From an uncultured Ruminococcus sp. (GTDB taxonomy: Bacteria > Bacillota > Clostridia > Oscillospirales > CAG-272), in NCBI GenBank assembly GCA_902762505.1, contig CACWOQ010000002.1, positions 2,667 to 66,666 on the forward strand: a stretch of DNA of 64,000 nt, in the 5' to 3' direction. The notes beneath the pieces were generated by a model that saw only the letters and a program-made list of their open reading frames with translations, was not told the DNA's origin and did not search any database. Positions 16,874 to 31,756 of the stretch are shown here, one piece after another (within the stretch, counting starts at the first letter, position 1; the number at the start of each line of letters is the position of its first letter). The position numbers were made by a program, and so were the translations under genes.

Positions 16874-16902
16874 TTGTCAAAACGGAAAATATATGATATA
16901 CT
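16874..16902 (+). promoter_or_regulatory. Promoter of the nucleotide-phosphoesterase operon
   Basis: TTGTCA (16874-16879), a 17-nt spacer, then TATACT (16897-16902) with an extended -10 TG at 16894-16895. Confidence 0.6.
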
Positions 16903-16930
16903 TTAAAAAAACGGGATCGGATGATCACAG

Positions 16931-18058
16931 ATGAGAAAATACAGACTTCGCATCGGGCTTGACGTGGATGATATACTTTACGAATGCAATTCGTACGCGC
17001 TCCGTCTGCTGAAAGAAAAGTACGGAAACGCCCCGTCGCTCGATATAAATAATATAACCGGATGGGGACTTCAGGGCAATATTGCCGATGAGAGGATAAA
17101 ATATTTCTCCGATCCGGATTTTGTCGCGTCTCAGCCGCTTTATCCCGGCGCCGCCAGGTTTGTTTCTCAGCTTTGTAAGATCGCCGACGTTTTTTTCGTG
17201 ACCGCGGTCCCGCCCGCCTGCATGACTGCGAGAGCGGAGAGGCTTGCGGCTGATTTTCCGGACGTTCCGCCGGGAAACATACTTATCGGTACGCGCAAGG
17301 ACATAGTGAATCTCGATATTTTGCTTGACGACGGGATACATAATATTTCATCGTCTCAGGCTTCTTATCCCGTGCTTATGCGCCGTCCGTGGAACAACGA
17401 TCTTTCCGGACTTCTTTCCGTGAACACCTATGAGGATTTCATCCACCTCGCCAAAATGGTCGGAAATTCTTTTGTCGGAAAAGTTCCGGATCTTCACAAG
17501 GGCGGAGTGCTTTGCCTCGTCGGCCCGTCCGGTACCGGCAAAACCGAGATCGCCGCGGCTCTGACCGAGGATAAAAGATTTGAAAAACCCGTCACGACGA
17601 CCACCCGTCCGCGAGCCGCGGGCGAAACGAAGAGCGCGTACAGGTTCGTCAGCACCGAGCAGTTCATTAAGCAAAAGGAAAACGGCGAATTCATCGAGAC
17701 TACCGTTTACGGCAAATACTATTTCGGCACGTCCGAAAAACATATCGCGCCGATAGTTGACAGCGGCAGGATCGCCGTGATACCGATTGATATCTGCGGC
17801 GCAGTCACGCTCAAGAACCTTTACGGAGCGAAAGCCGTGCTTGTATTCACCGAGCGGAACAAACGCGACATTTATATGAATATTATAAAACGTCAGATCT
17901 CAGATGAGGACAAGATCAGCCGTATGATGTCGATCGATTTTGAGCTGCGCAATATAGAGCTGTGTGATTTTTCGGTCAATTTTGACTCCGGAACCGAAAA
18001 ATGCGTCGAAAAAATTTATTCCGAATTACATATGAAGAGAGAAAAACGTAATGTTTGA
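16931..18058 (+). CDS. Fusion protein: 5'(3')-deoxyribonucleotidase-like HAD domain + guanylate kinase domain
   Basis: The N-terminal ~180 aa carry RIGLDVDDILYEC (a DxD nucleophile motif of NT5C/YorS-type nucleotidases). The C-terminal ~185 aa carry LVGPSGTGKTE (P-loop), TTTTRPRAAGETKSAYRFVS and EFIETTVYGKYYFGTS, which are the guanylate kinase blocks. Confidence 0.75.
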   Translation: MRKYRLRIGLDVDDILYECNSYALRLLKEKYGNAPSLDINNITGWGLQGNIADERIKYFSDPDFVASQPLYPGAARFVSQLCKIADVFFVTAVPPACMTARAERLAADFPDVPPGNILIGTRKDIVNLDILLDDGIHNISSSQASYPVLMRRPWNNDLSGLLSVNTYEDFIHLAKMVGNSFVGKVPDLHKGGVLCLVGPSGTGKTEIAAALTEDKRFEKPVTTTTRPRAAGETKSAYRFVSTEQFIKQKENGEFIETTVYGKYYFGTSEKHIAPIVDSGRIAVIPIDICGAVTLKNLYGAKAVLVFTERNKRDIYMNIIKRQISDEDKISRMMSIDFELRNIELCDFSVNFDSGTEKCVEKIYSELHMKREKRNV

Positions 18059-18998
18059 AGCTGTAACTGAAGCGATAAGGGAATATGAAACCGTTATCCT
18101 TCATCGCCACTGGTCTCCCGACGGTGACGCGCTCGGCAGTCAGATCGGTTTATACGAGTTCATAAAAGATAATTTCCCTGACAAGAAGGTATATAAAGTC
18201 GGCGACGGCGCGGGCAGATATTCGTTCATGTACGGATCCGTGATGGATGAAATACCGGACGAATACTATAACGGAGCTCTCGCCGTGATCCTCGACAGCG
18301 CGACAGAGGAGCTTGTATCAGACAAGCGTTTCAAGCTCGCCGCCAAGACCGTCAGGATCGACCATCATATCTACTGCGAGACCTTTACCGATATCGAGAT
18401 CGTCGACACGACGTATGAAAGCTGCTGCGGCATGATCGCTCACTTGTGCCGCGAGTCGGGACTTCACCTGTCCAAAACCGCGGCTGAGGCGATATTCACC
18501 GGTATGGTTACTGATTCAGGCAGGTTCAGATACGACAGCACGTCAGCAAGGACGTTTGAGCTTGCCGCGTATCTGATGGAGCACGGCGTAGACTGCAGCT
18601 CCATATATCTGCAGCTGTACAGCTCGGAGCTGTCGTCTGTGCTGCTTCGCGCGTCGTTTTTGTCTAAGATAAAAGTATTTGAAAACAGCTCCGTCGCATA
18701 TATTTACAATACGAAAGAGGAGCTTGAGGCTCTCGGCATATCGGATATTTTCTCCGTATCGCGCGGAATGGTCAACGTGATGGCGGATATAAAGGGAATA
18801 GATATCTGGGTGAATTTCACGGAGGACGGAGAAAAAGTCGTCTGCGAGCTTCGTTCGAGCAAATACAATATCAATCCCGTCGCTACGGCGCACGGAGGCG
18901 GCGGCCATCAGAAAGCCTCCGGCTGTGACGTTGCAGACCGCGAGGAGGCGATGGTCATGCTGAGAGAATTAAAAGCGATATCGGAGCAGAGCGAATGA
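18051..18998 (+). CDS. DHH/DHHA1 phosphoesterase, NrnA-like (copy 1)
   Basis: Motifs HRHWSPDGDALGS, RIDHH and GGGGHQKASG are present. It overlaps the upstream gene by 8 nt. Confidence 0.8.
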   Translation: MFEAVTEAIREYETVILHRHWSPDGDALGSQIGLYEFIKDNFPDKKVYKVGDGAGRYSFMYGSVMDEIPDEYYNGALAVILDSATEELVSDKRFKLAAKTVRIDHHIYCETFTDIEIVDTTYESCCGMIAHLCRESGLHLSKTAAEAIFTGMVTDSGRFRYDSTSARTFELAAYLMEHGVDCSSIYLQLYSSELSSVLLRASFLSKIKVFENSSVAYIYNTKEELEALGISDIFSVSRGMVNVMADIKGIDIWVNFTEDGEKVVCELRSSKYNINPVATAHGGGGHQKASGCDVADREEAMVMLRELKAISEQSE

Positions 18999-19975
18999 AC
19001 GAACAGATCAAAAAACAGATCATAGAGAAAATAGAAGAGTACGGTACGATAATCATAAGCCGTCATTCAAGACCGGACGGAGACGCCGTCGGATCGACTC
19101 TCGGACTTTCGGAAGTCTTGCGCGCGACTTATCCCGAAAAACGCGTATTTCTCGACAACAAGGACAGGTCCGAATACGTTTCGTTTCTCGGAGACGAGGG
19201 CGAGCGTCCGACGGACGGCGATTACACAGACGCGCTCGTAATAGTGCTCGATACCGGAAGCGTGTCGCGTATCGCAAACGACAGATACGACAAAGGCGCG
19301 TATCTTATAAAGATAGATCATCATATATTTGACGAGGATTACGGAGATATCTCGTGGGTCGAGGAAGAAAGATCGTCAGTTTGCGAGATGATCGCGGATC
19401 TTTGCGAGACTTATAAAGACAAACTCAGACTGCCGGTACACGCGGCGGAATGCATATTTACCGGCATGGTCACGGATTCGGGCAGATTCCGTTTCCGCGG
19501 TACGACCGGAGATACAATGAGGCTTGCGGCGTATCTTATGGATCAGGGTATTGATACGGAAACGATCTACGCGCATCTCGGTGCCGACGACATTGAAACT
19601 CTCAGATTCCGCGCCGCGCTTATTTCAAGGATCCAAATGACGGAAAACGGCGTCGCTCATCTTCATATCAGCTCCGCCCTGCGCAAAAGACGCGGGATCA
19701 GCCAGGAGGACGCGAGCAACACCGTATCTTTGATGGAGCATATCAAGGGCAGCCTTATCTGGCTTGCGTTTATCGAAAACGACGACAAAAGCATAAGAGT
19801 CAGACTCCGCTCGCGTTTCGTTACGGTACAGGAGCTTGCGGCGCGCTATCACGGAGGCGGGCACGCCTGCGCGAGCGGCGCGACCGTATACAGTAAAGAA
19901 GAGGCAGAAGCGCTCGTCGCCGAAGCCGACGCGATCTTAGGCGAATTCAAGAAGGAGCACCCCGGTCTGATATGA
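18995..19975 (+). CDS. DHH/DHHA1 phosphoesterase, NrnA-like (copy 2)
   Basis: Motifs SRHSRPDGDAVGS, KIDHH and HGGGHACASG are present. An ATGA overlap couples it to copy 1. Confidence 0.8.
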   Translation: MNEQIKKQIIEKIEEYGTIIISRHSRPDGDAVGSTLGLSEVLRATYPEKRVFLDNKDRSEYVSFLGDEGERPTDGDYTDALVIVLDTGSVSRIANDRYDKGAYLIKIDHHIFDEDYGDISWVEEERSSVCEMIADLCETYKDKLRLPVHAAECIFTGMVTDSGRFRFRGTTGDTMRLAAYLMDQGIDTETIYAHLGADDIETLRFRAALISRIQMTENGVAHLHISSALRKRRGISQEDASNTVSLMEHIKGSLIWLAFIENDDKSIRVRLRSRFVTVQELAARYHGGGHACASGATVYSKEEAEALVAEADAILGEFKKEHPGLI

Positions 19976-20709
19976 AAATCCTTCTGACGAACGACGACGG
20001 CATCAAAGGCGAAGGCCTGAGATATCTCGCCGAATGGTGCGCCGTCATGGGCGACGTTACTGTCGCCGCGCCGAAATTTGAGCAGAGCGGCAGATCGCAG
20101 GGGATCGTGATCAAAGTGCCGTATGAGGTCGTGTTGAGTGCGGAATATGAGGATCTCGGGATCGCGTCATACAGCGTTGACGCGTCGCCCGCCGACTGCG
20201 TCCGCTTCATCGCAGACAGAGTCGGAGTTGACTATGATCTTGTGTTTTCCGGCATCAACAACGGCTTCAACTTAGGTCATGATATCGCTTATTCGGGCAC
20301 GTGCGGAGCGGCTTTTGAAGCGAATTACGCCGGTATCAAAGCAGTATCGTTTTCCACCATCCGCGGCAATACGAAAAAGGCGTCGGAATACCTTCCCGCC
20401 GTATGGAGCTTTATCATAGGAAACGGCTTGCTTGAATACTCCGGTATGCTCAACGTGAATATCCCGGAGGAACCGAAGGGCATTCTTGTTACGGAGCAGG
20501 GCAGAACGTTTTTCCGCGACCATTTCGTCGACGCGGGCGAAAATATGTACAAAGCCGCGGTTTACCTTACCAGAAGCGTGGACGGACCTCTTGATCTGAA
20601 ATATGATACGGACGCCGTGCTCGCCGGGTATTGCTCCGTTACGCCGCTTCTGACGAACAGAACGGATCATGACGCATTGAAAAAAATATCCGAAAGGATC
20701 AAAAAATAA
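19972..20709 (+). CDS. surE: 5'/3'-nucleotidase SurE
   Basis: MKILLTNDDGI and SGINNGFNLGHDIAYSGTCGAAFEA are SurE signature blocks. An ATGA overlap couples it to the upstream gene. Confidence 0.9.
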   Translation: MKILLTNDDGIKGEGLRYLAEWCAVMGDVTVAAPKFEQSGRSQGIVIKVPYEVVLSAEYEDLGIASYSVDASPADCVRFIADRVGVDYDLVFSGINNGFNLGHDIAYSGTCGAAFEANYAGIKAVSFSTIRGNTKKASEYLPAVWSFIIGNGLLEYSGMLNVNIPEEPKGILVTEQGRTFFRDHFVDAGENMYKAAVYLTRSVDGPLDLKYDTDAVLAGYCSVTPLLTNRTDHDALKKISERIKK

Positions 20710-20721
20710 AGGAGAATCATT

Positions 20722-21102
20722 ATGGCTAATTCAAACGGACTTTTTTCTGTCAACGACAGAACTGCCGAGTTTGATCAGAACGACGCTCAGCAGAACAAGG
20801 TGATGGGTATTCTTTCCTATATCGGAATACTCGTACTCATCCCGATCTTTGCCGCCAAGAATTCCAAATTCGCACGCTTCCACGCAAACCAGGGACTTGT
20901 GATCGCGATCTGCGAGATCGCGTCTTACATAGTTCTGTCGCTTCTGCTCGGCAGGATCCCGTACGTCGGAGGAGTCTTCACGTTCATCAACTACCTGCTC
21001 GACGTGTTCCTGCTCGTCCTCTCCATCCTCGGGATCGTATTCTCGGCAAAAGGACAGGCGAAAGAGCTTCCGATCGTCGGAAAGATCAAGATCCTGAAAT
21101 AA
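20722..21102 (+). CDS. Small membrane protein, DUF4870-like
   Basis: The 126-aa product has three predicted TM helices and the motif ARFHANQGL that I recall from DUF4870 proteins. It starts 13 nt after surE. Confidence 0.55.
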   Translation: MANSNGLFSVNDRTAEFDQNDAQQNKVMGILSYIGILVLIPIFAAKNSKFARFHANQGLVIAICEIASYIVLSLLLGRIPYVGGVFTFINYLLDVFLLVLSILGIVFSAKGQAKELPIVGKIKILK

Positions 21103-21104: not shown

Positions 21105-21141
21105 GCAAAAAAATCACCCGGTCACACCGGGTGATTTTTTT
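21105..21141. terminator. Bidirectional intrinsic terminator between the two convergent operons
   Basis: An A-run, then ATCACCCGG-TCACA-CCGGGTGAT, then a T-run. Confidence 0.85.
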
Positions 21142-21145
21142 GTAT

Positions 21146-22735
21146 TCAGTGCTTTTTTTTTGCAAGGACTACGGCGCAGCCGACGGATGCGAGCAGAGCG
21201 ACTGCTGCAACGGAAACGGCGGCGTCGGATGTTTCGGGCGAAGGTTCGGGCTTGTCGGCTTTGACGAGCTTGTCGAGCTTGCAGCCCTGATTATACTCAT
21301 ACGTGCCCTTATAATTCTTGAAGGAACCGGTCACGGTGATCGTATCGCCGACTTCGATCTTATCGGCGTCGGTGCCTTCGAGTCTGTAGCACATTACGGG
21401 CTTGTCGTCATGACCTTCAACAACGATCGTTACGGTAACGTTATTGTATTCGGTGCTGAACGGAGTGTCTACCGTCTTAACGACGCCGGTGAGCGTGAAC
21501 GGTCCGGCAAGGGATTCGTTATCCTTGAGAGCGTACAGAGCTTCAAGTATCTCGTCGACGGTCTCGGGAACTTTTTCGTCCTCTTTTTCGGCTATCGTGT
21601 ACGCGTCAAGCGTGCAGTTTGCGTCGAATTCAACGGTGCCGTTGTAATTTTTGAGAATACCCGTGACGGTTATCGTGTCGCCAGATGCGATCTTGTCAAC
21701 GCCGTCAACGCCTTCCTTGTTGATCATGCGGAAGCACTGGACGGGCTTATCTTCAAAACCTTCGACTGCCATTGTTACGGTAACGTTGCCGTATCTTTCG
21801 CTGTATACCGTGTTTACTGCGGTGATCTTACCGGTAAGGGTGTACGTGCCGGGAAGAGCGGCGCCCTGCTCGAGAGCGTACGCAGCGTTCAGTATTTCTT
21901 CGGGCGTAGTGTAGGTGGGCTGCTCGGGCTGTTCAGCTTCGCCCTTCTTATAGGCGATCTCTTTGCAGGCGGCGTCGAACTCGTAAGTATCGTTGTATCT
22001 CTTGAGCTGACCTTCGACCTTTATCGTATCGCCGACAGCGAGCAGAGCGGCGTGCTCGCCTTCAAGACGGAAGCACTGCACGGGCTTGTCGGTCATGTCT
22101 TCGACTATGATCGTGACGGTGACGTTGTTGAATTTTTCGCTGTAAGCGGTATCGACGGATTTGATAACGCCTTCGAGCGTGTAGGGACCGCCGGCGAGAA
22201 ATTCGCCTTTTTCAAGTTTGTAAAGCGCTTCAACGATCTCCTTAGGAGTCTTTGGCGCGGGCTCGGGCTCGGGCTCGGGCTCGGCGGCGCCTTCAAGCGA
22301 GACCGCTATGCTCTTGAATCTGATCTGTTTGCCGGATTCGTTGCTGAACTTGATCTCCTTGGCGCTGCCGGTCCAGTTTCCGGTTCCGTCAAGTACGAAG
22401 CTGCCGGTGTCAGCGGTGACTGCATACGTATACTGGGAAGAACCGTATGTAAAGGTGATGGCTGTGATATTGCTGTCGGCTTTTACGGTAAAGCTGTTGC
22501 CGGCGTAGACTCTGAACGTTCCGTTGTCATAATGCTTCGGAACCAGCGATTCGTTTGTTCCGGCTTCGAAGGTTATCGTAACGCCGTCGCTTGTGACGGT
22601 ACCGATCTCGGCGCCGTCAGCCAGACCGAAATCGTTGGGATTGAACGTTACCGTTTTTGCTTCAGCGTTGACCGCGAGGCAGAGAACTGAAACGGTCATC
22701 ATTATCACCAGCAGAAGTGAGATGATCTTTTTCAT
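21146..22735 (-). CDS. Secreted, C-terminally anchored surface protein with 3 OB-fold-like modules
   Basis: AGGAG RBS, then a signal peptide (MKKIISLLLVIMMTVSVLCLAVNA). Next come a ~120-aa beta-rich N-domain, a (PE)n linker and three ~95-aa modules (TPxEIxxAxYAL..G..L.G.YTLTG.I..V.T.YS..Y.NVTVT..V.G...KPV.C[FY]R......GDTITV.G.LK.Y.GT.E[FY]...C). The C-terminus is a hydrophobic helix plus KKKH. Confidence 0.8.
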   Translation of the reverse strand: MKKIISLLLVIMMTVSVLCLAVNAEAKTVTFNPNDFGLADGAEIGTVTSDGVTITFEAGTNESLVPKHYDNGTFRVYAGNSFTVKADSNITAITFTYGSSQYTYAVTADTGSFVLDGTGNWTGSAKEIKFSNESGKQIRFKSIAVSLEGAAEPEPEPEPAPKTPKEIVEALYKLEKGEFLAGGPYTLEGVIKSVDTAYSEKFNNVTVTIIVEDMTDKPVQCFRLEGEHAALLAVGDTIKVEGQLKRYNDTYEFDAACKEIAYKKGEAEQPEQPTYTTPEEILNAAYALEQGAALPGTYTLTGKITAVNTVYSERYGNVTVTMAVEGFEDKPVQCFRMINKEGVDGVDKIASGDTITVTGILKNYNGTVEFDANCTLDAYTIAEKEDEKVPETVDEILEALYALKDNESLAGPFTLTGVVKTVDTPFSTEYNNVTVTIVVEGHDDKPVMCYRLEGTDADKIEVGDTITVTGSFKNYKGTYEYNQGCKLDKLVKADKPEPSPETSDAAVSVAAVALLASVGCAVVLAKKKH

Positions 22736-24488: not shown

Positions 24489-24911
24489 TTTGACGACGTA
24501 TTTGAATTCAATGTCCTTGGAAAGTCCGCCGTTTGAGACGGTACCTTTTACGGTGAATTCGGATCCGTTGACAGCCTCGGGTCCGATTACGACCTTCACG
24601 CTGTCGTTTTCAGAGGGTTCTACGGTGATCTTACCGTCCGCGCCTTCGACGACCCAGTCGATATCAAAGTCAAAGCCTTCGTGATCAATAAGCTTCGTGG
24701 GAAGCGTGAAGGGAGCTGATACGGTGTTTTTGAGTCCGGGCTTGTTGTATTCGTAAACAACTGCCGCGGCGCTGTCAACGATATCCTGCGTTATCGTTTT
24801 GACGCCGGGGTCGGCGGCTGCCGTCGTATCGTCGCCTTGACCGTTATTGCACGCGGCAAGCGATGATACGAACATGAACAAGACCAGGATCAGAGCCAGT
24901 CCTTTTTTCAT
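22761..24911 (-). CDS. Surface lipoprotein with 5 OB-fold-like modules
   Basis: AGGAG RBS and a lipoprotein signal (LVLFMFVSSLAAC). A small Ig-like N-domain is followed by five copies of the same ~95-aa module as in the downstream gene. Modules 1-2 and 4-5 are a duplicated pair. Confidence 0.8.
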   Translation of the reverse strand: MKKGLALILVLFMFVSSLAACNNGQGDDTTAAADPGVKTITQDIVDSAAAVVYEYNKPGLKNTVSAPFTLPTKLIDHEGFDFDIDWVVEGADGKITVEPSENDSVKVVIGPEAVNGSEFTVKGTVSNGGLSKDIEFKYVVKVPTDVLEAAYELAPGEALDGTYTLSGTIIAVNTPFSAEYNNVTVTIAVDGKEDKPIQCYRLKGEGADTIKKNDKITVTGKIKNYSGTVEFDSGCTLDSIDFVAEDTSPKLETPEQILKALYALNADEAVDGGPYELTGTITDVPTPYDAGFNNVTVVIVVEGFDEYPVTCYRLKGDGADTIKTGDNITVSGYLKRYKDTYEYDAGCTIVKINSVSDPSDATTDEASGTESASTPGSPELDTPEKIINALYALKDSETIEGSYTLTGEISNVDTAYSDQYKNVTVTIKVKGFEDKPVMCYRLKGTGVDTIKAGDTITVKGGLKNYKGTYEFMEGCELVKVESSAAPADTTKEETTTKKEDTQPVEKTPKEIVEAAYALAKDKALDGTWTLSGTVTSVNTPYSDEFKNVTVTIAVEGCEDKPIQCFRMKGTDADKVKKNDKITVTGKLKNYNGTVEFDAGCTLDKIDFVSENTAPKLETPEQIVKALYALNKNEALEGGPFTLTGKITSIPTPYDSGYNNVTVVIVCDGLDDYPVTCYRLKGDGADTIKVGDTITVKGNLKRYNDTYEFDNGCTIVK

Positions 24912-24932: not shown

Positions 24933-26303
24933 TTATTGAGATATGATCTCGCAGTCGGCAAGCGTGAACAGCTTGAGCTGCGGGTTGCCGTTAAAGAAAG
25001 TCACTATGCCGGAGCAATTCAGAGTCTTGCCGCGGAAATAATCCTCCGTTACGGTAGAGCCGTCTTCCGCGGTGAGCTTAACCGTGCGTACCGTTACGGT
25101 CTTGCCGTCGGCGGAACGGCAGGTAAGCGTCATCGCTCCGTCGCTCTGCGTTGTGCTTTGCGTAGTATATATGCTTGTTACGGTGAGGTTTTCAAGACGG
25201 ACGAGAACGTTTTCAAGCGTTTCGTTGTTGTTTATATCGTCAGCCGAAATAAGCACGGGTTCGGTTTTAACGTCTTTTTCGAGGATCTTCGTGTCGTCGT
25301 CGGTCGGATTGATGAGCGAGAACGACAGACCGGATATCTGAAATCCGAAGTTTTCGTTATCGTCGGCGGTGCCGGTTATGAGAAGTCTGTAACCGGGGAT
25401 GAGGAATTTCGGCGCAAGCGAGGCGTAGCCGCCGTAAACGTACACACCGTAATACTGCTGAGTATCCTCGTCGAAAGACTGAACGTAGATGCCGCCGCCG
25501 CTCTCTTTTGTAACGACGCCTTCAAATCTTACTTTGGTCGCGTTATAACTGCTCTTGTTGAGCACAAGCGATTTGATCGAAAGCTCGACTGCGGATCCGT
25601 AATAGAAAAGCGGGTCCTTTTTGCCGGAATAGAGGTTTATCTTTTCCGTTCTCGCGCTTGTCAGCGCGTTCATTGCGGTAGTGCCGTAACGGGTCGACGA
25701 GGTGCTTTTGCCCATTGCGAGACCGTCGGCTAAGATCTCGATATTGAGATTGCGCCACGTTTCGCTGTCCTTCGGCCTGTACCAGACCCAGGCGAGATAT
25801 CTGTCGCCCGTGGAATCGAGTACGGCGGAGCCTTCCTCGTTGCTTTCAAGCACTATTTCAGCAGCATCCTGAAGCTTTGACTTCGTATATCTGGATGCCG
25901 GTTTACCCCACGGCTCGACCTTGCCGGTCGATTCCGGAGTGTCTATCGCAAGGAATCTGACCTTGATGATCTCGGTGCGGGTGTAATTCCAAAAATGCAC
26001 AGTGTCGCCGTCGATGAACTGCTCAACGGTCACGAGACCTCTGCCGGTCTTGTTGAAGTCGTTTTGAATGTCGGAGGTTTTCAGCGTCTCCATCGCTCCG
26101 AAGTCGGGCAGGGAGGGATCTCTTACGTATTCCCATACGCCTTCGTCTCCGCCGCCTTCGTCGGTTTCGGGTATGGTCACGTCACCGGTGACGGTCCCGT
26201 CGGACGGGGCGTCCCGTCTGCACGAGCCGAGCACCGCCGTAAGAGATACGACGGTGATCAGCGCGAGCATAAGGGATAATATTTTTAATATATCCTTTTT
26301 CAT
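24933..26303 (-). CDS. Secreted lipoprotein: staphylococcal-nuclease (SNase/thermonuclease) domain + C-terminal OB-fold-like domains
   Basis: The lipobox is TAVLGSC. SNase motifs are present: IDGDTVHF, KVRFLAIDTPES (Arg, Ca-binding Asp-Thr and catalytic Glu positions) and GDRYLAWVWY (second Arg). The C-terminal ~190 aa show OB-like patterns (VRFEGVVT...GIYVQ..., LVRLENLTVT...). Confidence 0.8.
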   Translation of the reverse strand: MKKDILKILSLMLALITVVSLTAVLGSCRRDAPSDGTVTGDVTIPETDEGGGDEGVWEYVRDPSLPDFGAMETLKTSDIQNDFNKTGRGLVTVEQFIDGDTVHFWNYTRTEIIKVRFLAIDTPESTGKVEPWGKPASRYTKSKLQDAAEIVLESNEEGSAVLDSTGDRYLAWVWYRPKDSETWRNLNIEILADGLAMGKSTSSTRYGTTAMNALTSARTEKINLYSGKKDPLFYYGSAVELSIKSLVLNKSSYNATKVRFEGVVTKESGGGIYVQSFDEDTQQYYGVYVYGGYASLAPKFLIPGYRLLITGTADDNENFGFQISGLSFSLINPTDDDTKILEKDVKTEPVLISADDINNNETLENVLVRLENLTVTSIYTTQSTTQSDGAMTLTCRSADGKTVTVRTVKLTAEDGSTVTEDYFRGKTLNCSGIVTFFNGNPQLKLFTLADCEIISQ

Positions 26304-26309: not shown

Positions 26310-27764
26310 TTACTGGTTGAGCGTTACGCAGCGGTTGTAAGCGTCAACGAAAAGCTGCTTGAGCTCATCCTGCGTCGCCGTGGAGGCGGCGGAAATGTAA
26401 GCGACGAGAAGCTTGCCGACCTCGTCACGGGCGTCGGAAGAGCCTATGAACGCCGGGGACGTGAAGTAAGCGCTTTCCTGTTCCATACAGATCTTGGCGG
26501 AAAGAGCCGCGATGCCGTCCTTCGTCATGTTTGCGCCGCTCAGGAATTCCTTGTAAGCGTCAAGCTCGAAAGCGGATTTGAGAACGGGAACGTAACCGGA
26601 CGCCATGGAGAATTCAGCCTGGAATTCGGGGGAGGTGAGTAAGAATTTGAGGAATATCCACGCCGCGTCGTTGACGGTCTGATCCTTCTGCTTGAGCATG
26701 GTGATCGAAGGACCCTGAGAGATGACCTTCTTGTTGGAGGCGTCAGCCTGCGGGATGGTTGCGATACCTACCTCGAACGGATAAGATCCGTTATCGCTCT
26801 TGGCGGGGCACTGATAAGTCGCGCCGGCGGAAGAACCGATCGAAATGTAGGAATGGATGACCTTGCCTTCTTCGTTTGCCGTGGTGTTGGTGAAAAGACC
26901 GGAGGTGTAGCCGCCGTAGATCGCCTGAGTGGTCATGAGACCGTTCTGGCACCAGCCGCGGAATTTTTCGCAGAACTCGATATTCTGCTCATTGTTGAAC
27001 AGGAAGCGGTCCTGAACCTTGTCGACAGCCTGGGTGTACGGGGTCTTGAGCTGTTCGGTCATCGTGATGAACCAGTTAGCCTCTGAGTCGTATCCGAGCG
27101 GGATGCTGGTGGGTTCGATCTCTTTTATCTTTTTAATGACGTATTCGACGGAGGTGTCGTCGGTGGCGCCGGTGGAGAACCAGTGATCCGGAACTTTAAG
27201 ACCGTTGTTGTCGAAGAACGTCTTGTTGTAGTACATGACCTCGGTCGACTTGGAGAAGGGGAGCGAGTACATTTTGGACGTGTCGCCGAACTGCTGACCC
27301 TCGGCGTAGTAACCGGCGATGAAATCGTCTATCTGAGCCTGAGTGAGACCGACCGTCTCGTCGTTGATGTATTCGTTGAGGTCAACGACCTTCTTACTGC
27401 GGAGGTAAGTTGCGACGTGGTCCGGATAGCAGTACGCGAGAGCCGGCTGTTTGCCAGCCTGCAGCTCGGTGATGACCTGGTCGCGAACGTCGTCGTAACC
27501 GCCGATCGTCTGCTGGTCGATCGTGATGTTCGGGTATACCTTGTTGAATTCGGCGATGTACTTTACGAGAACGTCGCTGAGGTTTTTACCCATCGTGTGA
27601 TAGAAAGTGACGGTAACGTCACCGGTGGGAATGCTATGGGTCGTTTTGCTTCCCTGGCTGCCGGAGTCGTCCGGATTGTTACTGCCGTCGTTGTTATTGC
27701 AGGCGGTAAGGAATCCGCAGACGAGCATGCAGACGAGAAGCATCAAAGCAATAAATTTTTTCAT
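26310..27764 (-). CDS. ABC transporter substrate-binding lipoprotein, family-1 (sugar/CUT1-type)
   Basis: AGGAG RBS and lipobox GFLTAC. The 484-aa product has the typical extracellular solute-binding family 1 layout (VTFYHTMG..., ...YSLPFSKSTEVMYYNK...). Its stop is only 6 nt before the nuclease start. Confidence 0.8.
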   Translation of the reverse strand: MKKFIALMLLVCMLVCGFLTACNNNDGSNNPDDSGSQGSKTTHSIPTGDVTVTFYHTMGKNLSDVLVKYIAEFNKVYPNITIDQQTIGGYDDVRDQVITELQAGKQPALAYCYPDHVATYLRSKKVVDLNEYINDETVGLTQAQIDDFIAGYYAEGQQFGDTSKMYSLPFSKSTEVMYYNKTFFDNNGLKVPDHWFSTGATDDTSVEYVIKKIKEIEPTSIPLGYDSEANWFITMTEQLKTPYTQAVDKVQDRFLFNNEQNIEFCEKFRGWCQNGLMTTQAIYGGYTSGLFTNTTANEEGKVIHSYISIGSSAGATYQCPAKSDNGSYPFEVGIATIPQADASNKKVISQGPSITMLKQKDQTVNDAAWIFLKFLLTSPEFQAEFSMASGYVPVLKSAFELDAYKEFLSGANMTKDGIAALSAKICMEQESAYFTSPAFIGSSDARDEVGKLLVAYISAASTATQDELKQLFVDAYNRCVTLNQ

Positions 27765-27830
27765 TGAATGATCTCCTTTATTATATTCTTGCTCTGTATT
27801 GAAATCCTCTGTGTTGAGGTATTTGCCGGG

Positions 27831-28757
27831 TCAACCCTTGATCCCGCTGCGTGATACTCCGCGCATGATGTATTTGCGCAGGAACACGAAGACGAGGAAC
27901 AACGGGATGGATACGATGGTGACGGCAGCCATCTGAGCCGGGTAGTTCGTTTCGCCGAATTCATCGGTGAAGCTCGCTCCGCGCAGACCGTTGGTGATCA
28001 ACTGGTGAGCCGCGTCGTTGGCGACGAGCCTCGGCCAGATGTACGCGTTCCAGGCGCCCATCATTTTCAATATCGTTATCGTTATGATAGTGGAGACGGA
28101 GAGAGGAAGCATTACCTTCCAAAGGTATTTGAAATCGCTTGTGCCGTCGACCTTGGCGGCGAGATACAGCTCGTTCGGGATCTGCATGAAGGTCTGACGG
28201 AGCAGATAGATGTAGAAGACCGAGACAAGCATCGGGAAGATCAGTACCGCGAACGTGTTCGTGATGTCGAACGCCTCGACAGGCTCGGATACGAATGGCA
28301 GACGACCCGATACGGTGAGGTAGTTCGTGATCGTGTACAGCTCGCCGGGGACCATCATCGTCGCCATGAGCAGACCGAACATAAGGTTCCTGCCCTTGAA
28401 CTGAAGTCTCGCGAACGCGAAAGCGCTGAAAACGGTCACGATAAGCGAGAGCACCGTGGAAACTACGCCGACAAACATCGTATGGGCGAACAGATCCATA
28501 AGGTTTGCTTTGCTGAACGCCGTCACGAAGTTTTCAAAAACGAAATTCTGCGGCCAGAGCGTCGGCACGTTGGCGCGGTATTCGTCCATCGTCTTGAATG
28601 ACGAGATTATCATCCAGTAGAACGGGAATATGACGATTATCGCCATAATGCCGAGGAAAAGATACGTAATCGTATAACGGATTATTTTAGAAGTGCGCTG
28701 CGATGCCTTGACGGATTCAACGTTGACTTCTTTTACAGCATTGTTAAATTCAGCCAT
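27831..28757 (-). CDS. ABC transporter permease (MalG-like)
   Basis: The product has six TM segments and an EAA-type loop (ELYLAAKVDGTSDFKYLWKVMLPL). The ATG at 28757 is preferred over the TTG at 28769. Confidence 0.85.
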   Translation of the reverse strand: MAEFNNAVKEVNVESVKASQRTSKIIRYTITYLFLGIMAIIVIFPFYWMIISSFKTMDEYRANVPTLWPQNFVFENFVTAFSKANLMDLFAHTMFVGVVSTVLSLIVTVFSAFAFARLQFKGRNLMFGLLMATMMVPGELYTITNYLTVSGRLPFVSEPVEAFDITNTFAVLIFPMLVSVFYIYLLRQTFMQIPNELYLAAKVDGTSDFKYLWKVMLPLSVSTIITITILKMMGAWNAYIWPRLVANDAAHQLITNGLRGASFTDEFGETNYPAQMAAVTIVSIPLFLVFVFLRKYIMRGVSRSGIKG

Positions 28758-28765
28758 GACGCACC

Positions 28766-29743
28766 TCAATAATGTACTTTCTTCTTACTGACGTAGCCGT
28801 TTATCGCGGTGACTATCAGTATGATGCCGAACAGTATGAGCGAAGCGGCGGAGGCGTTGCCGGAGTTGCTTTTCGGCAGCATGTTGTAAACGTAACCGAC
28901 GAGCGTGTTCATCTGACCGTTTCCGCCCGGACCCATTCCGTCTCCGAATATACCTACGATACTGGAGTATTCCTTGAATCCGCCGATGAAGGACGTTATG
29001 ATGACGTACGCAAGCATCGGGGAAACGAGCGGGATGGTTATGCGGAAGAACGTGCGGATCTTTGAGGTACCGTCGATCTTCGCGGCTTCATAATACTGTT
29101 TGTTGACGTTCTGCAGTCCGCCCAAAAGTACGAGTATCTTGAACGGTATCGCGTTCCAGATGATGTACGTGCAGACAACGAACATGTTAGCGCCCCAGGA
29201 GGAACCGACGTTGACGAAGTTGATCGGCTCTATCCCGAATATTCCTATTATGTTGTTGATTATACCCTGAGTCTGTATAAGGTCGCCGAGACCAACGCGG
29301 GTGAACATGGCGTTGAAGACCATGCCTATCGCTATGGAGTTGGTGACGTAGGGAAGGAAGAACACCGTTTGCAGGAATTTCTGCAGCGGTTTGATCGAGT
29401 TCAGCGCAACGGCGATGAGGAGAGCGAGAGTCGTTGAGATCGGAACGGTTATTACGCAGAGCAGAAGCGTGTTTTTGAGGCACAGCTTGAAGTCGACGTA
29501 ATTGATGACCGTTTTGAAGTTTTCGATACCGATCGTGAACTTCTCGCCGCCGACGATCGCAAGACCGTTGTAACCGTTGAGAAACGCCATTCTGAACGTG
29601 TTCAGGAGCGGATAGAAGGAGAAGATTATGAGAAGTATGAGCGCGGGGGACAGGTAAAGCCAGCCTTTGAACTGATTCTTTACGTCTATGTTGTCGGACA
29701 CGGCGCGCAGCTTCTTCTTTTTCACAGCCTTTTCTTTACTCAT
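28766..29743 (-). CDS. ABC transporter permease (MalF-like)
   Basis: The EAA loop is YYEAAKIDGTSKIRTFFRITIPL. A GAGGTG RBS lies before the ATG at 29743 (MSKEKAVKKKK...). Confidence 0.85.
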   Translation of the reverse strand: MSKEKAVKKKKLRAVSDNIDVKNQFKGWLYLSPALILLIIFSFYPLLNTFRMAFLNGYNGLAIVGGEKFTIGIENFKTVINYVDFKLCLKNTLLLCVITVPISTTLALLIAVALNSIKPLQKFLQTVFFLPYVTNSIAIGMVFNAMFTRVGLGDLIQTQGIINNIIGIFGIEPINFVNVGSSWGANMFVVCTYIIWNAIPFKILVLLGGLQNVNKQYYEAAKIDGTSKIRTFFRITIPLVSPMLAYVIITSFIGGFKEYSSIVGIFGDGMGPGGNGQMNTLVGYVYNMLPKSNSGNASAASLILFGIILIVTAINGYVSKKKVHY

Positions 29744-29753
29744 ACGGACCACC

Positions 29754-30848
29754 TCAGAACCTGATTCTTTCGCCGGTTTCGTTGTTGAATATGAAGACCT
29801 TGTTTCTCTTGAGATCAAAGCGGACGACGTTGTTTTCGCCGGGCGTCACTCTTATGTCGGCGTCGATTATGGCGCGTACGCTCGGCTTGCGGGAAGCGGA
29901 GTTTTCGAAAACGACCGAGCAGTCGCGTCCCATGACCTCTATGTTGACAAGCTTTCCGGTGAGCTTGCCGGACTCGCTCGGTACGAATCCCTCGGGGCGG
30001 ACGCCGACCGCGACTTCGCCGTCGGGCGCGTCAACGTCCATGACGGCGTCTTCGCCGATGAACAGTTTGCCGTGATCGACGCGTCCGTCGAAGGTGTTGA
30101 TCGGAGGCGTGCCGAGGAACTGCGCGACGAACAGGTTGCCGGGATCGTCGTATACGCTCTGCGGTTCGCCGATCTGTTGAACGACGCCTTCCTTCATAAC
30201 GACGATCATATCGGAGATGCTCATCGCCTCTTCCTGGTCGTGAGTTACGAAAACGGTGGTAACGCCTGTCTCGCGCTGGATCCTCCTGATCTCTTCACGC
30301 GTCTGCAGACGCAGGCGCGCGTCGAGGTTGGACAGCGGCTCGTCGAGAAGAAGTACTCTCGGCGTTTTTACGAGCGCTCTCGCGATTGCGACGCGCTGCT
30401 GCTGACCGCCGGAAAGCTCGCTCGGCTTTCTGTCCATCAGCTCGCCGATCTGAACGAGGTCGGCTGCGTGCTGCGCACGGTCAAGCATTTCCTCTTTGGT
30501 GAGCTTTTCTTCACCCTTGAGGTTTTGAAGAGGGAAGAGGATGTTCTGCTTTACCGTAAGGTGCGGATAAAGCGCGTAATTCTGGAAAACAAGACCTACA
30601 CCGCGGTGCTCGGGTTCGAGTGACGTTACGTCTTTGTCTCCGAAAAGGATCTTTCCGCTCGTGGGCTTCTGCAGACCGCTTATCATGTAAAGCGTTGTGC
30701 TTTTGCCGCATCCGGAGGGACCGAGCAGACCTATGAGCTTGCCGTCCGGTATCTCGATATCGAGATCGTTAACGGCTACGACTTCCTCGCCGCTTTTTTT
30801 GTTTCTGCTGGGGAAGCTCTTCGTGAGATGTTGTAATGTGATTCTCAT
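29754..30848 (-). CDS. ABC transporter ATP-binding protein (MsmX/MalK/UgpC-like)
   Basis: It has Walker A GPSGCGKST, the signature LSGGQQQRVAIARAL and Walker B LLLDEPLSNLD, plus a C-terminal regulatory/TOBE-like domain. An AGGAG RBS is present. Confidence 0.9.
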   Translation of the reverse strand: MRITLQHLTKSFPSRNKKSGEEVVAVNDLDIEIPDGKLIGLLGPSGCGKSTTLYMISGLQKPTSGKILFGDKDVTSLEPEHRGVGLVFQNYALYPHLTVKQNILFPLQNLKGEEKLTKEEMLDRAQHAADLVQIGELMDRKPSELSGGQQQRVAIARALVKTPRVLLLDEPLSNLDARLRLQTREEIRRIQRETGVTTVFVTHDQEEAMSISDMIVVMKEGVVQQIGEPQSVYDDPGNLFVAQFLGTPPINTFDGRVDHGKLFIGEDAVMDVDAPDGEVAVGVRPEGFVPSESGKLTGKLVNIEVMGRDCSVVFENSASRKPSVRAIIDADIRVTPGENNVVRFDLKRNKVFIFNNETGERIRF

Positions 30849-30864
30849 ACCGTCTCCTATGCGT

Positions 30865-31674
30865 TTATTTATTTTCAGGTAAATCTACGTTTACCGTCGT
30901 GCCTTTATACGGATCGTACGCGGCGGAAGATTCTGCCGCTTTCTTTTCATATTCGTCGCGCTCGGCTTCTGTCTTGAATATTCGCTGACTTGCCCAGTCA
31001 ACCACGACCGTGTCGGCGAGGACGTCGTGCAGAAGCAGACTTCCGCGGCTTTTTATAAGCGTTACAAGCTCTGCTATGGCAAATACAGCCAACAGTATAA
31101 GCCCGAAAACGCCGGTGACTCCGGAAAAGGAGGTCACGATAACGGCGGCGGGAAGCGCGGCTTCAAGTGTGCCTTTGCCTACAACGCCGCGAACGAAAAG
31201 CACCGGTCTGCTTATTTGAGTGCAGCCGGTGCGCATTACACCGAGCCCGAAAAGAAGCTTACCGGGAGTCCTTCCGTCGCCCGTGAAGGCGGGGATAAGA
31301 AACTCAAGTAAGAGCGCCGATATCACGATGCCCGCGGCGAATATCGAAAACGATATTGCGTAAGAGGTCCTTATCGCGGCGTTCGCCTCTTCATCTGCGT
31401 TTGCCGCGGCGACCGCCGCCTCGTATACCGATCTTTCCTGCTCGGATAATTTGTAGTATTCTTCGCGCGTCATTTTCGCGGTCTCGCTGAATGACACGCC
31501 GTATTCTTCTTCGTATCTGTGTATGATCTGTTGATACTTTTCGTTATAGGAATCCACGTTGAGAATGCTTGACATAAGAAGATAAAGGCCCGCGGTAAGT
31601 ATGGCGGCGATTATTATATCGCAGAGAAACGCAAAAATGCGTTTACTGTATGGCGCCTTCTGTACGTCAGTCAT
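30865..31674 (-). CDS. RDD-family membrane protein
   Basis: KRIFAFLCDIIIAAIL and TPGKLLFGLGV are typical of RDD domains. A GAGGT RBS 8 nt before the ATG at 31674 makes it the preferred start over 31710. Confidence 0.6.
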   Translation of the reverse strand: MTDVQKAPYSKRIFAFLCDIIIAAILTAGLYLLMSSILNVDSYNEKYQQIIHRYEEEYGVSFSETAKMTREEYYKLSEQERSVYEAAVAAANADEEANAAIRTSYAISFSIFAAGIVISALLLEFLIPAFTGDGRTPGKLLFGLGVMRTGCTQISRPVLFVRGVVGKGTLEAALPAAVIVTSFSGVTGVFGLILLAVFAIAELVTLIKSRGSLLLHDVLADTVVVDWASQRIFKTEAERDEYEKKAAESSAAYDPYKGTTVNVDLPENK

Positions 31675-31727
31675 CAACGGATACCTCATAACGGAAAGAT
31701 TTTGACACAATACGACTTATTATATTC

Positions 31728-31756
31728 AGTATAACAAAAATAAAATGTGATGTCAA
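31728..31756 (-). promoter_or_regulatory. Sigma-A-type promoter of the RDD-ABC-nuclease-OB operon
   Basis: On the minus strand: TTGACA (31756-31751), a 17-nt spacer, then TATACT (31733-31728). Confidence 0.65.

Follow-up and report, generated by a model that had tools for sequence, protein, structure and literature searches.

What could be the role of two operons that converge on a single terminator, one encoding a surface nuclease together with an ABC importer and the other a set of intracellular phosphoesterases? Such an island of about 15 kb (positions 16874-31756) is found in the window analysed here, a stretch of 64,000 nucleotides from an uncultured rumen Clostridia genome. Module A, on the minus strand, starts with genes for an RDD membrane protein and a UgpC/MalK-type ATPase, which are followed by those for a pair of permeases, a lipoprotein that binds solutes, an SNase lipoprotein and two surface proteins with five and three OB-fold repeats, respectively; in module B, on the plus strand, a gene for a fusion of NT5C and guanylate-kinase domains precedes those for a pair of NrnA-like DHH/DHHA1 enzymes and for SurE. 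The preliminary description of this DNA interpreted the pair as a salvage pathway, and this interpretation is largely supported: probably, the two modules together serve the use of extracellular nucleic acids. The analysis establishes which genes are present, that their catalytic residues are conserved, the topology signals of the proteins, the folds of the binding protein and the OB repeats, and the conserved linkage of the modules; we infer the substrates, the succession of the steps and the joint expression of the modules. Gene calls, Pfam searches and sequence inspection located all the previously described gene elements in their places, and the same 13 genes, with identical gene calls, are present in an independently assembled rumen metagenome contig of 100.6 kb (L161).

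The intrinsic terminator that is common to both operons occupies the whole 43-bp gap between their stop codons and forms a perfect bidirectional hairpin of 17-18 bp, flanked by an A7 run and, on the opposite side, by a T7 run. Described earlier at 21105-21141, it is indeed present, at 21106-21142, and folds strongly on both strands (dG -26.9 kcal/mol on the plus strand and -26.6 kcal/mol on the minus strand; z about -7.4, with 0 of 200 shuffled sequences equally stable). Each operon is preceded by a promoter-like site with an extended -10 element, namely TTGTCA-17-TATACT plus a TG extension for module B (16874-16902, plus strand) and TTGACA-17-TATACT plus a TG extension for module A (31728-31756, minus strand); a search for a shared operator or riboswitch upstream of both operons found none.

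The nuclease and importer operon

The first gene of module A, which holds this position in all 53 loci with at least 6 kb of upstream sequence, encodes the RDD-family membrane protein (30865-31674; this and all following module A genes are on the minus strand; Pfam RDD, E 2e-8). It is followed by the ABC ATPase of the MalK/UgpC type (29754-30848; ABC_tran, E 8e-38, with weak C-terminal matches to OB_MalK and CysA_C) and two permeases assigned to the Pfam family BPD_transp_1 (28766-29743 and 27831-28757, with gene calls of 325 aa and 308 aa in L161). Together with the RDD protein, the ATPase and the permeases would make up a CUT1-type importer.

So what would this transporter import? The cognate lipoprotein (26310-27764; lipobox LTAC; Pfam SBP_bac_8/1) belongs to the UgpB/dinucleotide-binding (U3GBP) type of solute-binding proteins. 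In a PDB sequence search, the 7C0x series comes out on top (E 7e-18), followed by UgpB, and the AF2 model of the lipoprotein (pLDDT 88.7) yields the same order in a Foldseek comparison, with 7C0L as the top match (E 6e-27, TM 0.84) and UgpB next. The title of the 7C0L entry reads 'dinucleotide-binding protein ... bound to uridylyl-3'-5'-phospho-guanosine'. Of the eight residues that carry mutations in the crystals of the 7C0x series, HMMER alignment places seven in the lipoprotein (as Y90, Y113, D115, S173, S311, Y317 and Q350), whereas the eighth, Y224, falls outside the alignment; the mapped pocket residues are mostly identical or conservatively replaced, and six of them are invariant among 28 members of the binding-protein family, the overall identity to the dinucleotide-binding protein being about 21%. 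The best solved relative thus is a dinucleotide-binding ABC protein, which supports the salvage chemistry. UgpB itself is a phosphate-ester binder, and, judging by sequence alone, the lipoprotein may bind ligands of the UgpB type (glycerophosphodiesters).

This low identity and the placement of the lipoprotein in the sugar/UgpB (CUT1) class leave room for a different scenario, which we consider quite unlikely, in which module A imports a non-nucleotide substrate (a sugar or glycerophosphodiesters), the activity of the SNase and the OB-fold proteins is confined to the outside of the cell, for instance to defense or to the remodelling of biofilm or eDNA, and module B performs housekeeping functions (turnover of nanoRNA, c-di-AMP and nucleotides), the link between the modules being loose or nonexistent. 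NrnA-type enzymes are, indeed, housekeeping enzymes in Firmicutes, and some lineages have the DHH pair but no nuclease operon nearby. It would then be hard to see why a dinucleotide-bound protein is the top match of the lipoprotein by both sequence and fold, and why the SNase gene directly follows the binding-protein gene in 53 of the 53 loci, where the complete order RDD-ATPase-permease-permease-SBP-SNase is conserved.

The SNase (thermonuclease) is itself a lipoprotein (24933-26303; an alternative start at 26270 yields 445 aa), with a beta-rich C-terminal domain of about 220 aa appended to the nuclease domain (Pfam SNase, E 7e-10). The catalytic and Ca2+-binding residues are all present (D98, D100, T101, R116, D121, T122, E124 and R168) and are invariant across 17 homologues, except for D121, which is replaced by N in six of these. 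The search for SNase homologues yielded more than 1200, and one related island (L048) encodes an additional secreted nuclease. Downstream of the SNase lie the genes for a 716-aa lipoprotein (22761-24911; lipobox LAAC; Pfam tRNA_anti-codon, E 1e-14), in which five OB-fold repeats of about 100 aa were delimited, and for a secreted 529-aa protein (21146-22735; tRNA_anti-codon OB-fold, E 1e-10), which consists of a signal peptide, an N-terminal beta-rich domain, three OB-fold repeats of about 100 aa, recognized as repeat units and by AF2 and Foldseek, and a C-terminal membrane anchor. One repeat of the 716-aa protein was modelled by AF2 as a helix and a five-stranded barrel (pLDDT 94.7), with the LysRS anticodon-binding OB domain, RPA and Stn1 as the top Foldseek matches, and the OB-repeat proteins show weak NCBIfam matches to the ExeM/NucH model. 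These observations are compatible with the following scheme. The OB-repeat proteins, anchored by lipid or membrane segment, would keep DNA or RNA attached to the cell surface; the SNase would cut it to short products that carry a 5'-OH and a 3'-phosphate (3'-mononucleotides, dinucleotides, short oligomers); and the binding protein would deliver the still phosphorylated fragments to the importer for uptake. Pfam annotation of the island genes reveals no extracellular phosphatase or nucleotidase, which fits the import of phosphorylated products.

The cytoplasmic phosphoesterase operon

The first gene of module B (16931-18058; all module B genes are on the plus strand) encodes a 375-aa fusion of an N-terminal NT5C-type 5'(3')-deoxyribonucleotidase of the HAD superfamily (Pfam NT5C, E 6e-14) with a C-terminal domain of the guanylate-kinase type (Guanylate_kin, E 5e-20), in which the P-loop and most of the GMP-site residues align with yeast guanylate kinase (1gky); its score against the NCBIfam Gmk equivalog is 84.5, under the cut-off of 160. 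Homologues of the fusion are widespread and annotated 'hypothetical protein', and its gene takes different positions around the island while staying adjacent to it. SurE, encoded at 19972-20709, is a 5'/3'-nucleotidase by family (Pfam SurE, E 2.7e-40); it matches the NCBIfam SurE models with E 1e-43, yet remains under their equivalog cut-offs. Both the SurE and the NT5C families have documented 3'-nucleotidase activity.

Between these genes lies the pair DHH1 (18051-18998) and DHH2 (18995-19975), both recognized by Pfam, with B. subtilis NrnA as the best match (PDB 5j21; E 1.7e-55 and 1.1e-63, respectively); both proteins retain all catalytic residues of NrnA and score under the NrnA equivalog cut-off. 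The two share 38% identity and differ in the 5'-phosphate-binding patch. DHH2 has the canonical RxRxR and GGGH motifs, and RxRxR is kept in 89 of 89 orthologues; in DHH1, the patch is changed to VxExR, lacking the equivalents of R262 and R264 of NrnA, with Glu in place of R264, and the (L/V..)xExR signature is kept in 119 of 119 orthologues. The same signatures occur in DHH pairs that are not linked to the island and, accordingly, are not island-specific. No signal peptide can be read from the sequences of SurE, DHH1, DHH2 or the NT5C fusion. None of the island proteins reaches an NCBIfam equivalog cut-off, so that the exact activities of the enzymes are uncertain. The last gene of the operon, for a small membrane protein of 126 aa (20722-21102), has no tblastn match in 160 related loci and probably lies outside the functional unit.

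In the proposed scheme, short oligomers, once imported, would be cleaved by the two differentiated DHH/DHHA1 enzymes, phosphates would be removed inside the cell by SurE and the NT5C domain, and the guanylate-kinase-type domain would return a product to the nucleotide pool. The preliminary description had presented this chemistry as coherent; the part that concerns uptake is borne out by the dinucleotide-type relative of the binding protein, whereas the fit of NrnA to the SNase products is less neat than was stated. A 5'-phosphate is required by B. subtilis NrnA, which fails to bind dinucleotides with a 5'-OH (ApA, GpG) and is a weak pAp phosphatase (PMC5593865, PMC9757072); given that SNase products have no 5'-phosphate, a canonical NrnA is not a direct fit to them.

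The same set of parts could, in principle, serve phosphate scavenging as the main purpose, with SurE, NT5C and the DHH enzymes freeing Pi, and nucleosides and bases being by-products or a source of carbon and nitrogen. Phosphatase or phosphodiesterase domains are found in three of the four module B proteins, and the importer and its binding protein, with UgpB as the second-best match, resemble Ugp, which serves E. coli under phosphate starvation. We nevertheless regard this as a rather unlikely main purpose: no Pho-box-like operator or regulator is visible in the sequence upstream of the operons, the rumen usually is not phosphate-limited, and the guanylate-kinase-type domain, along with a nucleoside hydrolase or UPRTase near some islands, points to re-use of nucleosides and bases. 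Phosphate release overlaps with nucleotide salvage and is compatible with it.

Linkage of the two modules in relatives

The preliminary description had suggested looking at related genomes, where unlinked operons would speak against a joint pathway. What we find instead is linkage that is frequent but not universal. Starting from the SNase, 40 species-level genomes have flanking DNA of sufficient length; in 31 of these the DHH pair is located downstream of the SNase operon, in convergent orientation, and SurE is there too in 30, whereas about 20% of the SNase operons have no DHH pair inside 10 kb; starting from the DHH pair, the SNase and the binding protein are encoded within 10 kb in 9 of 13 dereplicated lineages, and the remaining four, including one abundant human-gut lineage, have no nuclease or importer nearby, all these counts being drawn mostly from related uncultured Clostridia and hence not phylogenetically independent. 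By our estimate, chance would place a single unrelated gene no more than 10 kb away in far fewer than 1% of genomes 2-3 Mb in size.

Could the pairing, then, be nothing but inherited synteny, carried over without function in one Clostridia clade? The phylogenetic dependence of the counts is what this explanation has in its favor, and we deem it highly improbable, considering that SNase identity drops to 37-45% across the linked loci, that the order and orientation of the modules vary between lineages while their adjacency is kept, that the genes flanking the island are not conserved, and that islands occur in Spirochaetota MAGs (L036, L037), a complete one being present in Sphaerochaeta (L036), in a different phylum. 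Related islands are also found in gut MAGs labelled 'Mollicutes' and 'Bacilli' (L009, L010, L041). At least four gene arrangements, such as that of L168, retain the adjacency, and in one of them, that of L096, the modules are fused into a single co-directional cluster of 11 genes, with the DHH2 stop at 11960, the RDD start at 11969 (an 8-bp gap) and one strong terminator at the far end. That adjacency outlasts these rearrangements and the fusion while flanking genes turn over also argues against the import of a non-nucleotide substrate with a loose link to module B. Such recurrent pairing in many gut and rumen bacteria suggests one pathway that feeds on extracellular DNA or RNA.

Comparison with known systems

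The closest precedents for the island are the SNase–ABC operons of Mycoplasma and the DNA-utilisation loci of Bacteroidales. In the former (M. agalactiae P80-MAG_5040-MAG_5050-5070, M. hyopneumoniae Mhp379, M. genitalium MG_186 and M. pneumoniae Mpn133), a surface SNase lipoprotein is co-transcribed with a binding-protein-like lipoprotein, a sugar-type ABC ATPase and two permeases, and import of nucleic-acid precursors has been proposed. This parts list is that of module A, the likeness being one of gene content; the island differs in its gene order, with RDD always first and the SNase following the binding protein, in the multi-repeat OB-fold proteins encoded after the nuclease, and in the linked cytoplasmic module, the M. 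agalactiae paper reporting no conserved genes downstream of the transporter. The DHH pair has a counterpart in M. bovis, where two adjacent stand-alone DHH/DHHA1 genes of divergent specificity (Mbov_0328/0327) are needed for nucleotide recycling and their loss is rescued by NMPs or nucleosides (PMC7373297, the text of which contains no occurrence of 'ABC transporter').

The Bacteroidales ddbABCDEF loci, which are needed to metabolise exogenous DNA, combine a dedicated transporter with nucleases that are secreted or located at the surface and with a surface protein that putatively binds the substrate (PMC12478041, which mentions neither Firmicutes nor Clostridia nor ABC transporters). The overall logic and the gut habitat are like those of the island, whereas the transporter is a TonB-dependent (SusC/D-like) one of the outer membrane, the nucleases are of other families, and these loci have neither an ABC importer nor a linked NrnA/SurE module. 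The closest solved protein, the dinucleotide-binding ABC protein of Thermus thermophilus (PDB 7C0F, 7C0K and 7C0L; Chandravanshi et al., 2021, as cited in PMC12718374), is about 80 residues shorter than the binding protein of the island, which is a lipoprotein with a predicted ligand.

The transporter belongs to the CUT1 type and is Ugp-like, and in its cytoplasmic phosphodiesterase logic the island is reminiscent of UgpQ; the binding protein scores 83.6 bits against the UgpB equivalog, far under the cut-off of 411. In B. subtilis YhcR, OB folds occur together with an SNase domain. As in the island, YhcR and the ExeM/NucH-type nucleases bring OB-fold nucleic-acid-binding domains and a nuclease together at the cell surface, but within one polypeptide, whereas the island places its OB repeats on separate proteins. 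In YhcR, these domains are further joined to a 5'-nucleotidase domain, so that nucleosides are made outside the cell, whereas the nucleotidases of the island are cytoplasmic. The island would follow the Ugp-like logic of importing first and hydrolysing inside, as opposed to extracellular dephosphorylation followed by nucleoside uptake.

Linkage of the two modules across genomes

The island (window 16874-31756) consists of 13 genes in two convergent operons that are bounded by promoter-like sites at 16874 (+) and 31756 (-). The plus-strand operon (module B) encodes a 375-aa fusion of an NT5C-type 5'(3')-deoxyribonucleotidase with a guanylate-kinase-type domain (NT5C-GK, 16931-18058), a pair of DHH/DHHA1 proteins, DHH1 (315 aa, 18051-18998) and DHH2 (326 aa, 18995-19975), and SurE, and a small membrane protein of 126 aa lies on the same strand. 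The minus-strand operon (module A) encodes a membrane protein of the RDD family, an ABC ATPase of the MalK/UgpC type with two permeases, a 484-aa solute-binding lipoprotein (SBP, 26310-27764), a 456-aa SNase lipoprotein, and a pair of secreted proteins (716 and 529 aa) with similarity to a nucleic-acid-binding OB-fold family. The pairing of convergent operons noticed in the preliminary description is confirmed, and the bidirectional terminator that it assigned to both of them is real: a perfect hairpin (21106-21142), with a run of A7 on one side and T7 on the other, fills nearly all of the 43 bases between the last stop codons and folds strongly on both strands (dG = -26.9 kcal/mol on the plus strand and -26.6 on the minus strand; z about -7.4). 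Within module A, the intergenic gaps are small and a single terminator is visible. A 100.6-kb contig from a separately assembled rumen metagenome (L161) carries the island too, with identical gene calls, which places the window in an uncultured lineage of rumen Clostridia. The 126-aa membrane protein was considered as a member of the unit and rejected, given that tblastn detected its homologues in none of the 160 related loci.

Could the pairing of the two modules be simply a matter of inherited synteny? We approached the linkage from both sides. Starting from the SNase, we used a profile to retrieve 80 loci with 10 kb of flanking DNA from contigs representing one genome per species, and mapped homologues of the 13 window proteins in them by tblastn. 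The order RDD-ATPase-permease-permease-SBP-SNase is retained in all 53 loci with enough upstream DNA, and where the DNA extends 8 kb or more beyond the SNase gene on its downstream side (40 loci), DHH1 and DHH2 are encoded on the opposite strand in 31 cases, 30 of which include SurE as well; in one further locus, the DHH genes are co-directional with the SNase operon, and in another, SurE is found at the very edge of the fetched DNA. The linkage persists at SNase identities of 37-45% and extends to metagenome-assembled genomes (MAGs) labelled Oscillospiraceae, Lachnospiraceae, Christensenellales, Candidatus Scatosoma, Faecousia and Sphaerochaeta; the SNase and SurE genes are 1.4 to 9.1 kb apart, a spread that reflects the variable surface-protein cargo between them. 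For the reverse approach, metagenome contigs were searched with a profile of DHH1, which resulted in 56 lineages (90% identity); 13 of them had at least 8 kb on both sides, and in nine of these 13 both SNase and SBP lie within 10 kb of the DHH gene. The preliminary description had named unlinked modules in relatives as the outcome that would speak against a joint salvage pathway; from either side, the modules turn out to be linked in most cases.

The arrangement of the linked modules is far from uniform. Besides the convergent form seen in the window, there is a fully co-directional one, SurE-like, NT5C-GK, DHH1, DHH2, RDD, ATPase, permeases, SBP, SNase and OB (L096, L108 and L159), in which, at L096, only 8 bp separate the DHH2 stop from the RDD start and the sole strong terminator follows the last gene; one in which the nuclease/importer operon is followed by DHH1-DHH2-SurE on the same strand (L115); and one in which DHH1-DHH2-SurE-RDD-...-SNase-OB are co-directional and NT5C-GK is divergent (L168). 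The position of NT5C-GK varies more generally, at either end of the island or transcribed divergently, and in three of the four contexts sampled from NT5C-GK homologues this gene adjoined the island. Given that architecture differs between lineages and that the island's neighbours in the window hardly ever accompany it in other genomes, inherited synteny has to be rejected as the cause of the pairing. The two modules stay adjacent through rearrangement, fusion into one transcription unit and turnover of their surroundings, and they are adjacent in a second phylum as well; such a pattern is the classic mark of functional coupling and supports the view of the island as a conserved functional neighbourhood. 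The island is found in hundreds of uncultured Clostridia as well as in Sphaerochaeta and gut Mollicutes-like MAGs, and related islands occur in MAGs of gut Mollicutes and Bacilli (L009, L010 and L041).

The fused arrangements imply co-transcription in the species that possess them. The two promoters in the window are alike in that each consists of an A-tract, TTGxCA, a 17-nt spacer and TG-n-TATACT. When the two promoter regions were compared for common words and inverted repeats that might form a shared operator, only generic promoter features were found in common, so that the promoters offer no evidence of co-regulation, which we only infer for the convergent arrangement. An Rfam scan of the whole window for riboswitches and leader RNAs returned three tRNAs only.

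These tRNA genes lie just beyond the two ends of the island, tRNA-Gly(tcc) at 16697-16770 (+) and tRNA-Arg(tct) and tRNA-His(gtg) at 31964-32040 and 32045-32121 (+), which, taken together with the non-conserved flanking protein genes, raises the question of whether the island is mobile as a unit. Among the flanking genes that are not conserved beside the island elsewhere are those for a membrane protein with a nuclease-related domain (NERD; 15877-16554, -) and for a large Clp_N/AAA chaperone that is ClpB-like by its Pfam domains (33810-36416, -). Opposite the OB-repeat and SNase genes, there are antisense ORFs of up to 519 aa (21131-22690, 22593-23468 and 24936-25733, all +), which we take to be shadow ORFs rather than genes, considering their odd composition and lack of family matches.

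Surface proteins and the binding protein of the importer

By sequence inspection, lipoboxes are present in the SBP, the SNase and one of the OB proteins; the second OB protein combines a signal peptide with an anchor at the C-terminus, and signal peptides are absent from all four module-B enzymes. The SNase combines the Pfam SNase domain with a signal peptide bearing the lipobox cysteine, and retains the Ca2+-binding and catalytic residues of staphylococcal nuclease (D98, D100, T101, R116, D121, T122, E124 and R168), which are invariant in 17 homologues with identities down to 40%, except that D121 is replaced by N in six of the 17. Nucleases of this type leave 5'-OH and 3'-phosphate ends, the products being 3'-mononucleotides and dinucleotides. 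At one locus (L048:13690-16173, +), an additional secreted DNA/RNA non-specific endonuclease (Endonuclea_NS_2), which also contains a dockerin domain and Ada-type zinc-binding repeats, is encoded between SNase and SurE.

The two OB-repeat proteins contain five and three copies, respectively, of a unit of about 100 aa, with 46-77% identity between units. An AlphaFold model of one unit (pLDDT 94.7) consists of an N-terminal helix followed by a five-stranded barrel and, of the structures solved so far, most closely resembles the anticodon-binding OB domain of lysyl-tRNA synthetase, RPA and Stn1. Judging from this model, the repeats are predicted to be nucleic-acid-binding OB folds displayed in multiple copies on the cell surface. 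In the 716-aa lipoprotein (22761-24911, -), the units occupy aa 138-239, 250-351, 378-479, 503-604 and 615-716, and each contains two invariant cysteines; the highest identities are those between units 1 and 4 (70%) and between units 2 and 5 (77%), compared with about 50% for the other pairs, which indicates block duplication of a two-unit segment.

The best sequence match of the SBP in the PDB is the 7C0x series (E 7e-18), followed by Escherichia coli UgpB, and the AlphaFold model (pLDDT 88.7) finds the same entries by Foldseek (7C0L, E 6e-27, TM 0.84), ahead of UgpB complexes with glycerol phosphate and glycerophosphocholine. The titles of the 7C0x entries, as given by Foldseek, describe a 'dinucleotide-binding protein of ABC transporter endogenously bound to uridylyl-3'-5'-phospho-guanosine'; this is the Thermus thermophilus protein U3GBP. 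Eight residues were mutated in the crystal series, and seven of these fall within the HMMER alignment to the SBP (Y224 lies outside): Y56, S127, Y246 and Q274 correspond to the identical residues Y90, S173, Y317 and Q350 of the window protein, and F79, N81 and T240 correspond to Y113, D115 and S311. Six of the seven mapped positions are invariant among 28 family members. Thus, over the seven mappable residues, the SBP shares both the fold and the ligand-pocket residues of the dinucleotide-bound structure, and this conservation makes the pocket look fitted to a phosphate ester of the nucleotide or dinucleotide kind. We infer that the ligand is a phosphate ester of this type, the identity to the dinucleotide binder being about 21%. 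The SBP scores 83.6 bits against the UgpB equivalog model NF008211, compared to a cut-off of 411. Over its N-terminal half, it also resembles the NCBIfam model 'P68 family surface lipoprotein', weakly and below threshold (NF045826, E 3.6e-14), which may hint at a link to mycoplasma-type surface lipoproteins. The nucleoside-binding lipoprotein P48 of Mycoplasma, which was considered for comparison, probably belongs to a different family of binding proteins (Bmp/PnrA-type) from the SBP.

Cytoplasmic enzymes and a proposed import-then-trim route

All module-B proteins score below the NCBIfam equivalog cut-offs for their families; they are family members whose exact activity is uncertain. SurE scores 138.6 bits against the Pfam gathering cut-off of 22.1 and has the N-terminal NDDG motif but falls below all NCBIfam SurE equivalog cut-offs (for example, 120.9 against 135.1 for TIGR00087). 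Both the SurE and the NT5C ('5'(3')-deoxyribonucleotidase') families include 3'-nucleotidase activity. The guanylate-kinase-type domain fused to NT5C retains the P-loop (GPSGTGKT) and most GMP-site residues, which align with yeast S34, R38, Y50, E69, Y78, S80 and D100, and scores 84.5 bits against a Gmk equivalog cut-off of 160; one possibility is that it re-phosphorylates a salvage product. The fusion family is widespread (1641 matches), under the names 'hypothetical protein' at NCBI and 'guanylate kinase' at JGI. In two loci, other genes of nucleotide metabolism are found near NT5C-GK, namely a nucleoside hydrolase gene (IU_nuc_hydro; L168:12816-13736, +) at about 2 kb or less and a uracil phosphoribosyltransferase gene (L167:16315-16944, +) at about 5 kb or less.

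For both DHH1 and DHH2, the best match is NrnA of Bacillus subtilis (E 1.7e-55 and 1.1e-63, respectively), with only 38% identity between the two; both align over their full length to 5j21, with conservation of H20, D24, D26, D80, H103, H104, D156 and the GGGH-xx-ASG motif, and the NrnA catalytic residues are invariant within the DHH1 alignment. With 239.9 and 223.7 bits against the NrnA equivalog cut-off of 350 (NF053633), they are classed here as NrnA-like proteins rather than as NrnA equivalogs. The preliminary description had taken NrnA chemistry to fit the SNase products, which does not hold as simply as stated: NrnA of B. subtilis does not bind ApA or GpG, which lack the 5'-phosphate, and is a poor pAp phosphatase (PMC5593865, PMC9757072). 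In the complex of NrnA with pAp, the 5'-phosphate is held by R262, R264 and R266 (PMC5593865, PMC9757072). This R-x-R-x-R patch is kept in DHH2 (RVRLR in the window; 89 of 89 orthologues), whereas DHH1 has VCELR at aa 264-268 and V/L-x-E-x-R in all 119 orthologues, that is, two arginines are lost and the charge is reversed exactly at the 5'-phosphate site. The loss of these arginines makes DHH1 a candidate for the handling of 5'-OH fragments. The difference between the two patches persists in lineages in which the pair adjoins no nuclease operon, and the xExR signature had to be rejected as a marker of island-linked copies, given that unlinked DHH pairs carry it too. At one locus without SNase (L128:4787-9858, -), a different CUT1 ABC system is divergent from DHH1-DHH2-SurE and consists of a 534-aa binding lipoprotein (27% identical to the window SBP), two permeases, a 251-aa lipoprotein without a Pfam match and an FRG-domain protein.

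How might these components work together? No extracellular phosphatase is encoded in the island, and with the nuclease and the SBP outside and the nucleotidases inside, the simplest reading is that phosphorylated fragments would be imported first and then trimmed in the cytoplasm. Such a route would follow the logic of the Ugp system, which the island transporter resembles. We consider this mechanism as a whole to be probable, and the NrnA step is its weak point. A far more specific version would combine the first Gram-positive ABC importer dedicated to phosphorylated nucleic-acid fragments (3'-nucleotides and dinucleotides), DHH1 as a novel subclass of NrnA, adapted to the 5'-OH/3'-phosphate products of SNase-type enzymes by the exchange of its 5'-phosphate-binding arginines for a hydrophobic residue and a glutamate, and conversion by NT5C-GK of the resulting 3'-phosphorylated (deoxy)nucleotides into usable 5'-nucleotides. 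That all three parts hold jointly seems rather unlikely; if they did, abundant uncultured Clostridia of the rumen and gut would have a hitherto undescribed route for feeding on extracellular DNA and RNA.

Relation to known systems

The rumen and gut are rich in extracellular DNA and RNA. A dedicated locus for DNA utilisation became known only recently, in 2025, from Bacteroidales, and is based on an outer-membrane transporter of the TonB-dependent type; the paper mentions no Firmicutes, Clostridia or ABC transporters (PMC12478041). These ddb loci are anchored by the TonB-dependent transporter DdbC/D, whereas the island has none and encodes an ABC importer instead. The island is therefore not a member of the ddb family, although by analogy it would work like a DNA-utilisation locus.

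The Gram-positive precedent has so far been confined to the genome-reduced mycoplasmas. Mycoplasma SNase lipoproteins (Mhp379, MAG_5040, MG_186 and Mpn133) are encoded with a binding-protein-like lipoprotein and a sugar-type ABC transporter, all of which are co-transcribed in M. agalactiae, and delivery of nucleic-acid precursors has been proposed for these systems. Compared by gene content, module A has the same surface SNase lipoprotein with conserved residues and the same co-directional sugar-type ABC ATPase, two permeases and binding-protein-like lipoprotein, kept in each of the 53 loci, so that the Mycoplasma operons appear to be its clear precedent. Nothing conserved was reported downstream of the transporter in the Mycoplasma work. 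M. bovis depends on a tandem pair of DHH/DHHA1 proteins to recycle nucleotides, according to a paper that leaves ABC transporters unmentioned (PMC7373297). In the literature, of which our coverage was incomplete so that this amounts to absence of evidence only, we did not find a Clostridia-type island joining OB-repeat capture proteins, SNase, a U3GBP-like importer and the set of two NrnA-like proteins, SurE and NT5C-GK.

The island suggests a general Gram-positive solution: OB-fold capture at the surface, SNase, an ABC importer with a binding protein similar to a dinucleotide binder, and a trimming module in the cytoplasm whose genes are linked to the rest. It makes experimentally approachable the question of a bacterial import of phosphorylated oligonucleotides, the role of the second NrnA paralogue and that of the widespread NT5C-GK fusion. 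The island is a form of nuclease-coupled uptake of nucleic-acid breakdown products, which is itself already known; the novelty lies in the putative importer of dinucleotides or 3'-nucleotides, the differentiation within the NrnA pair, the as yet uncharacterised fusion of NT5C and GK, and the surface proteins with their multiple OB folds.
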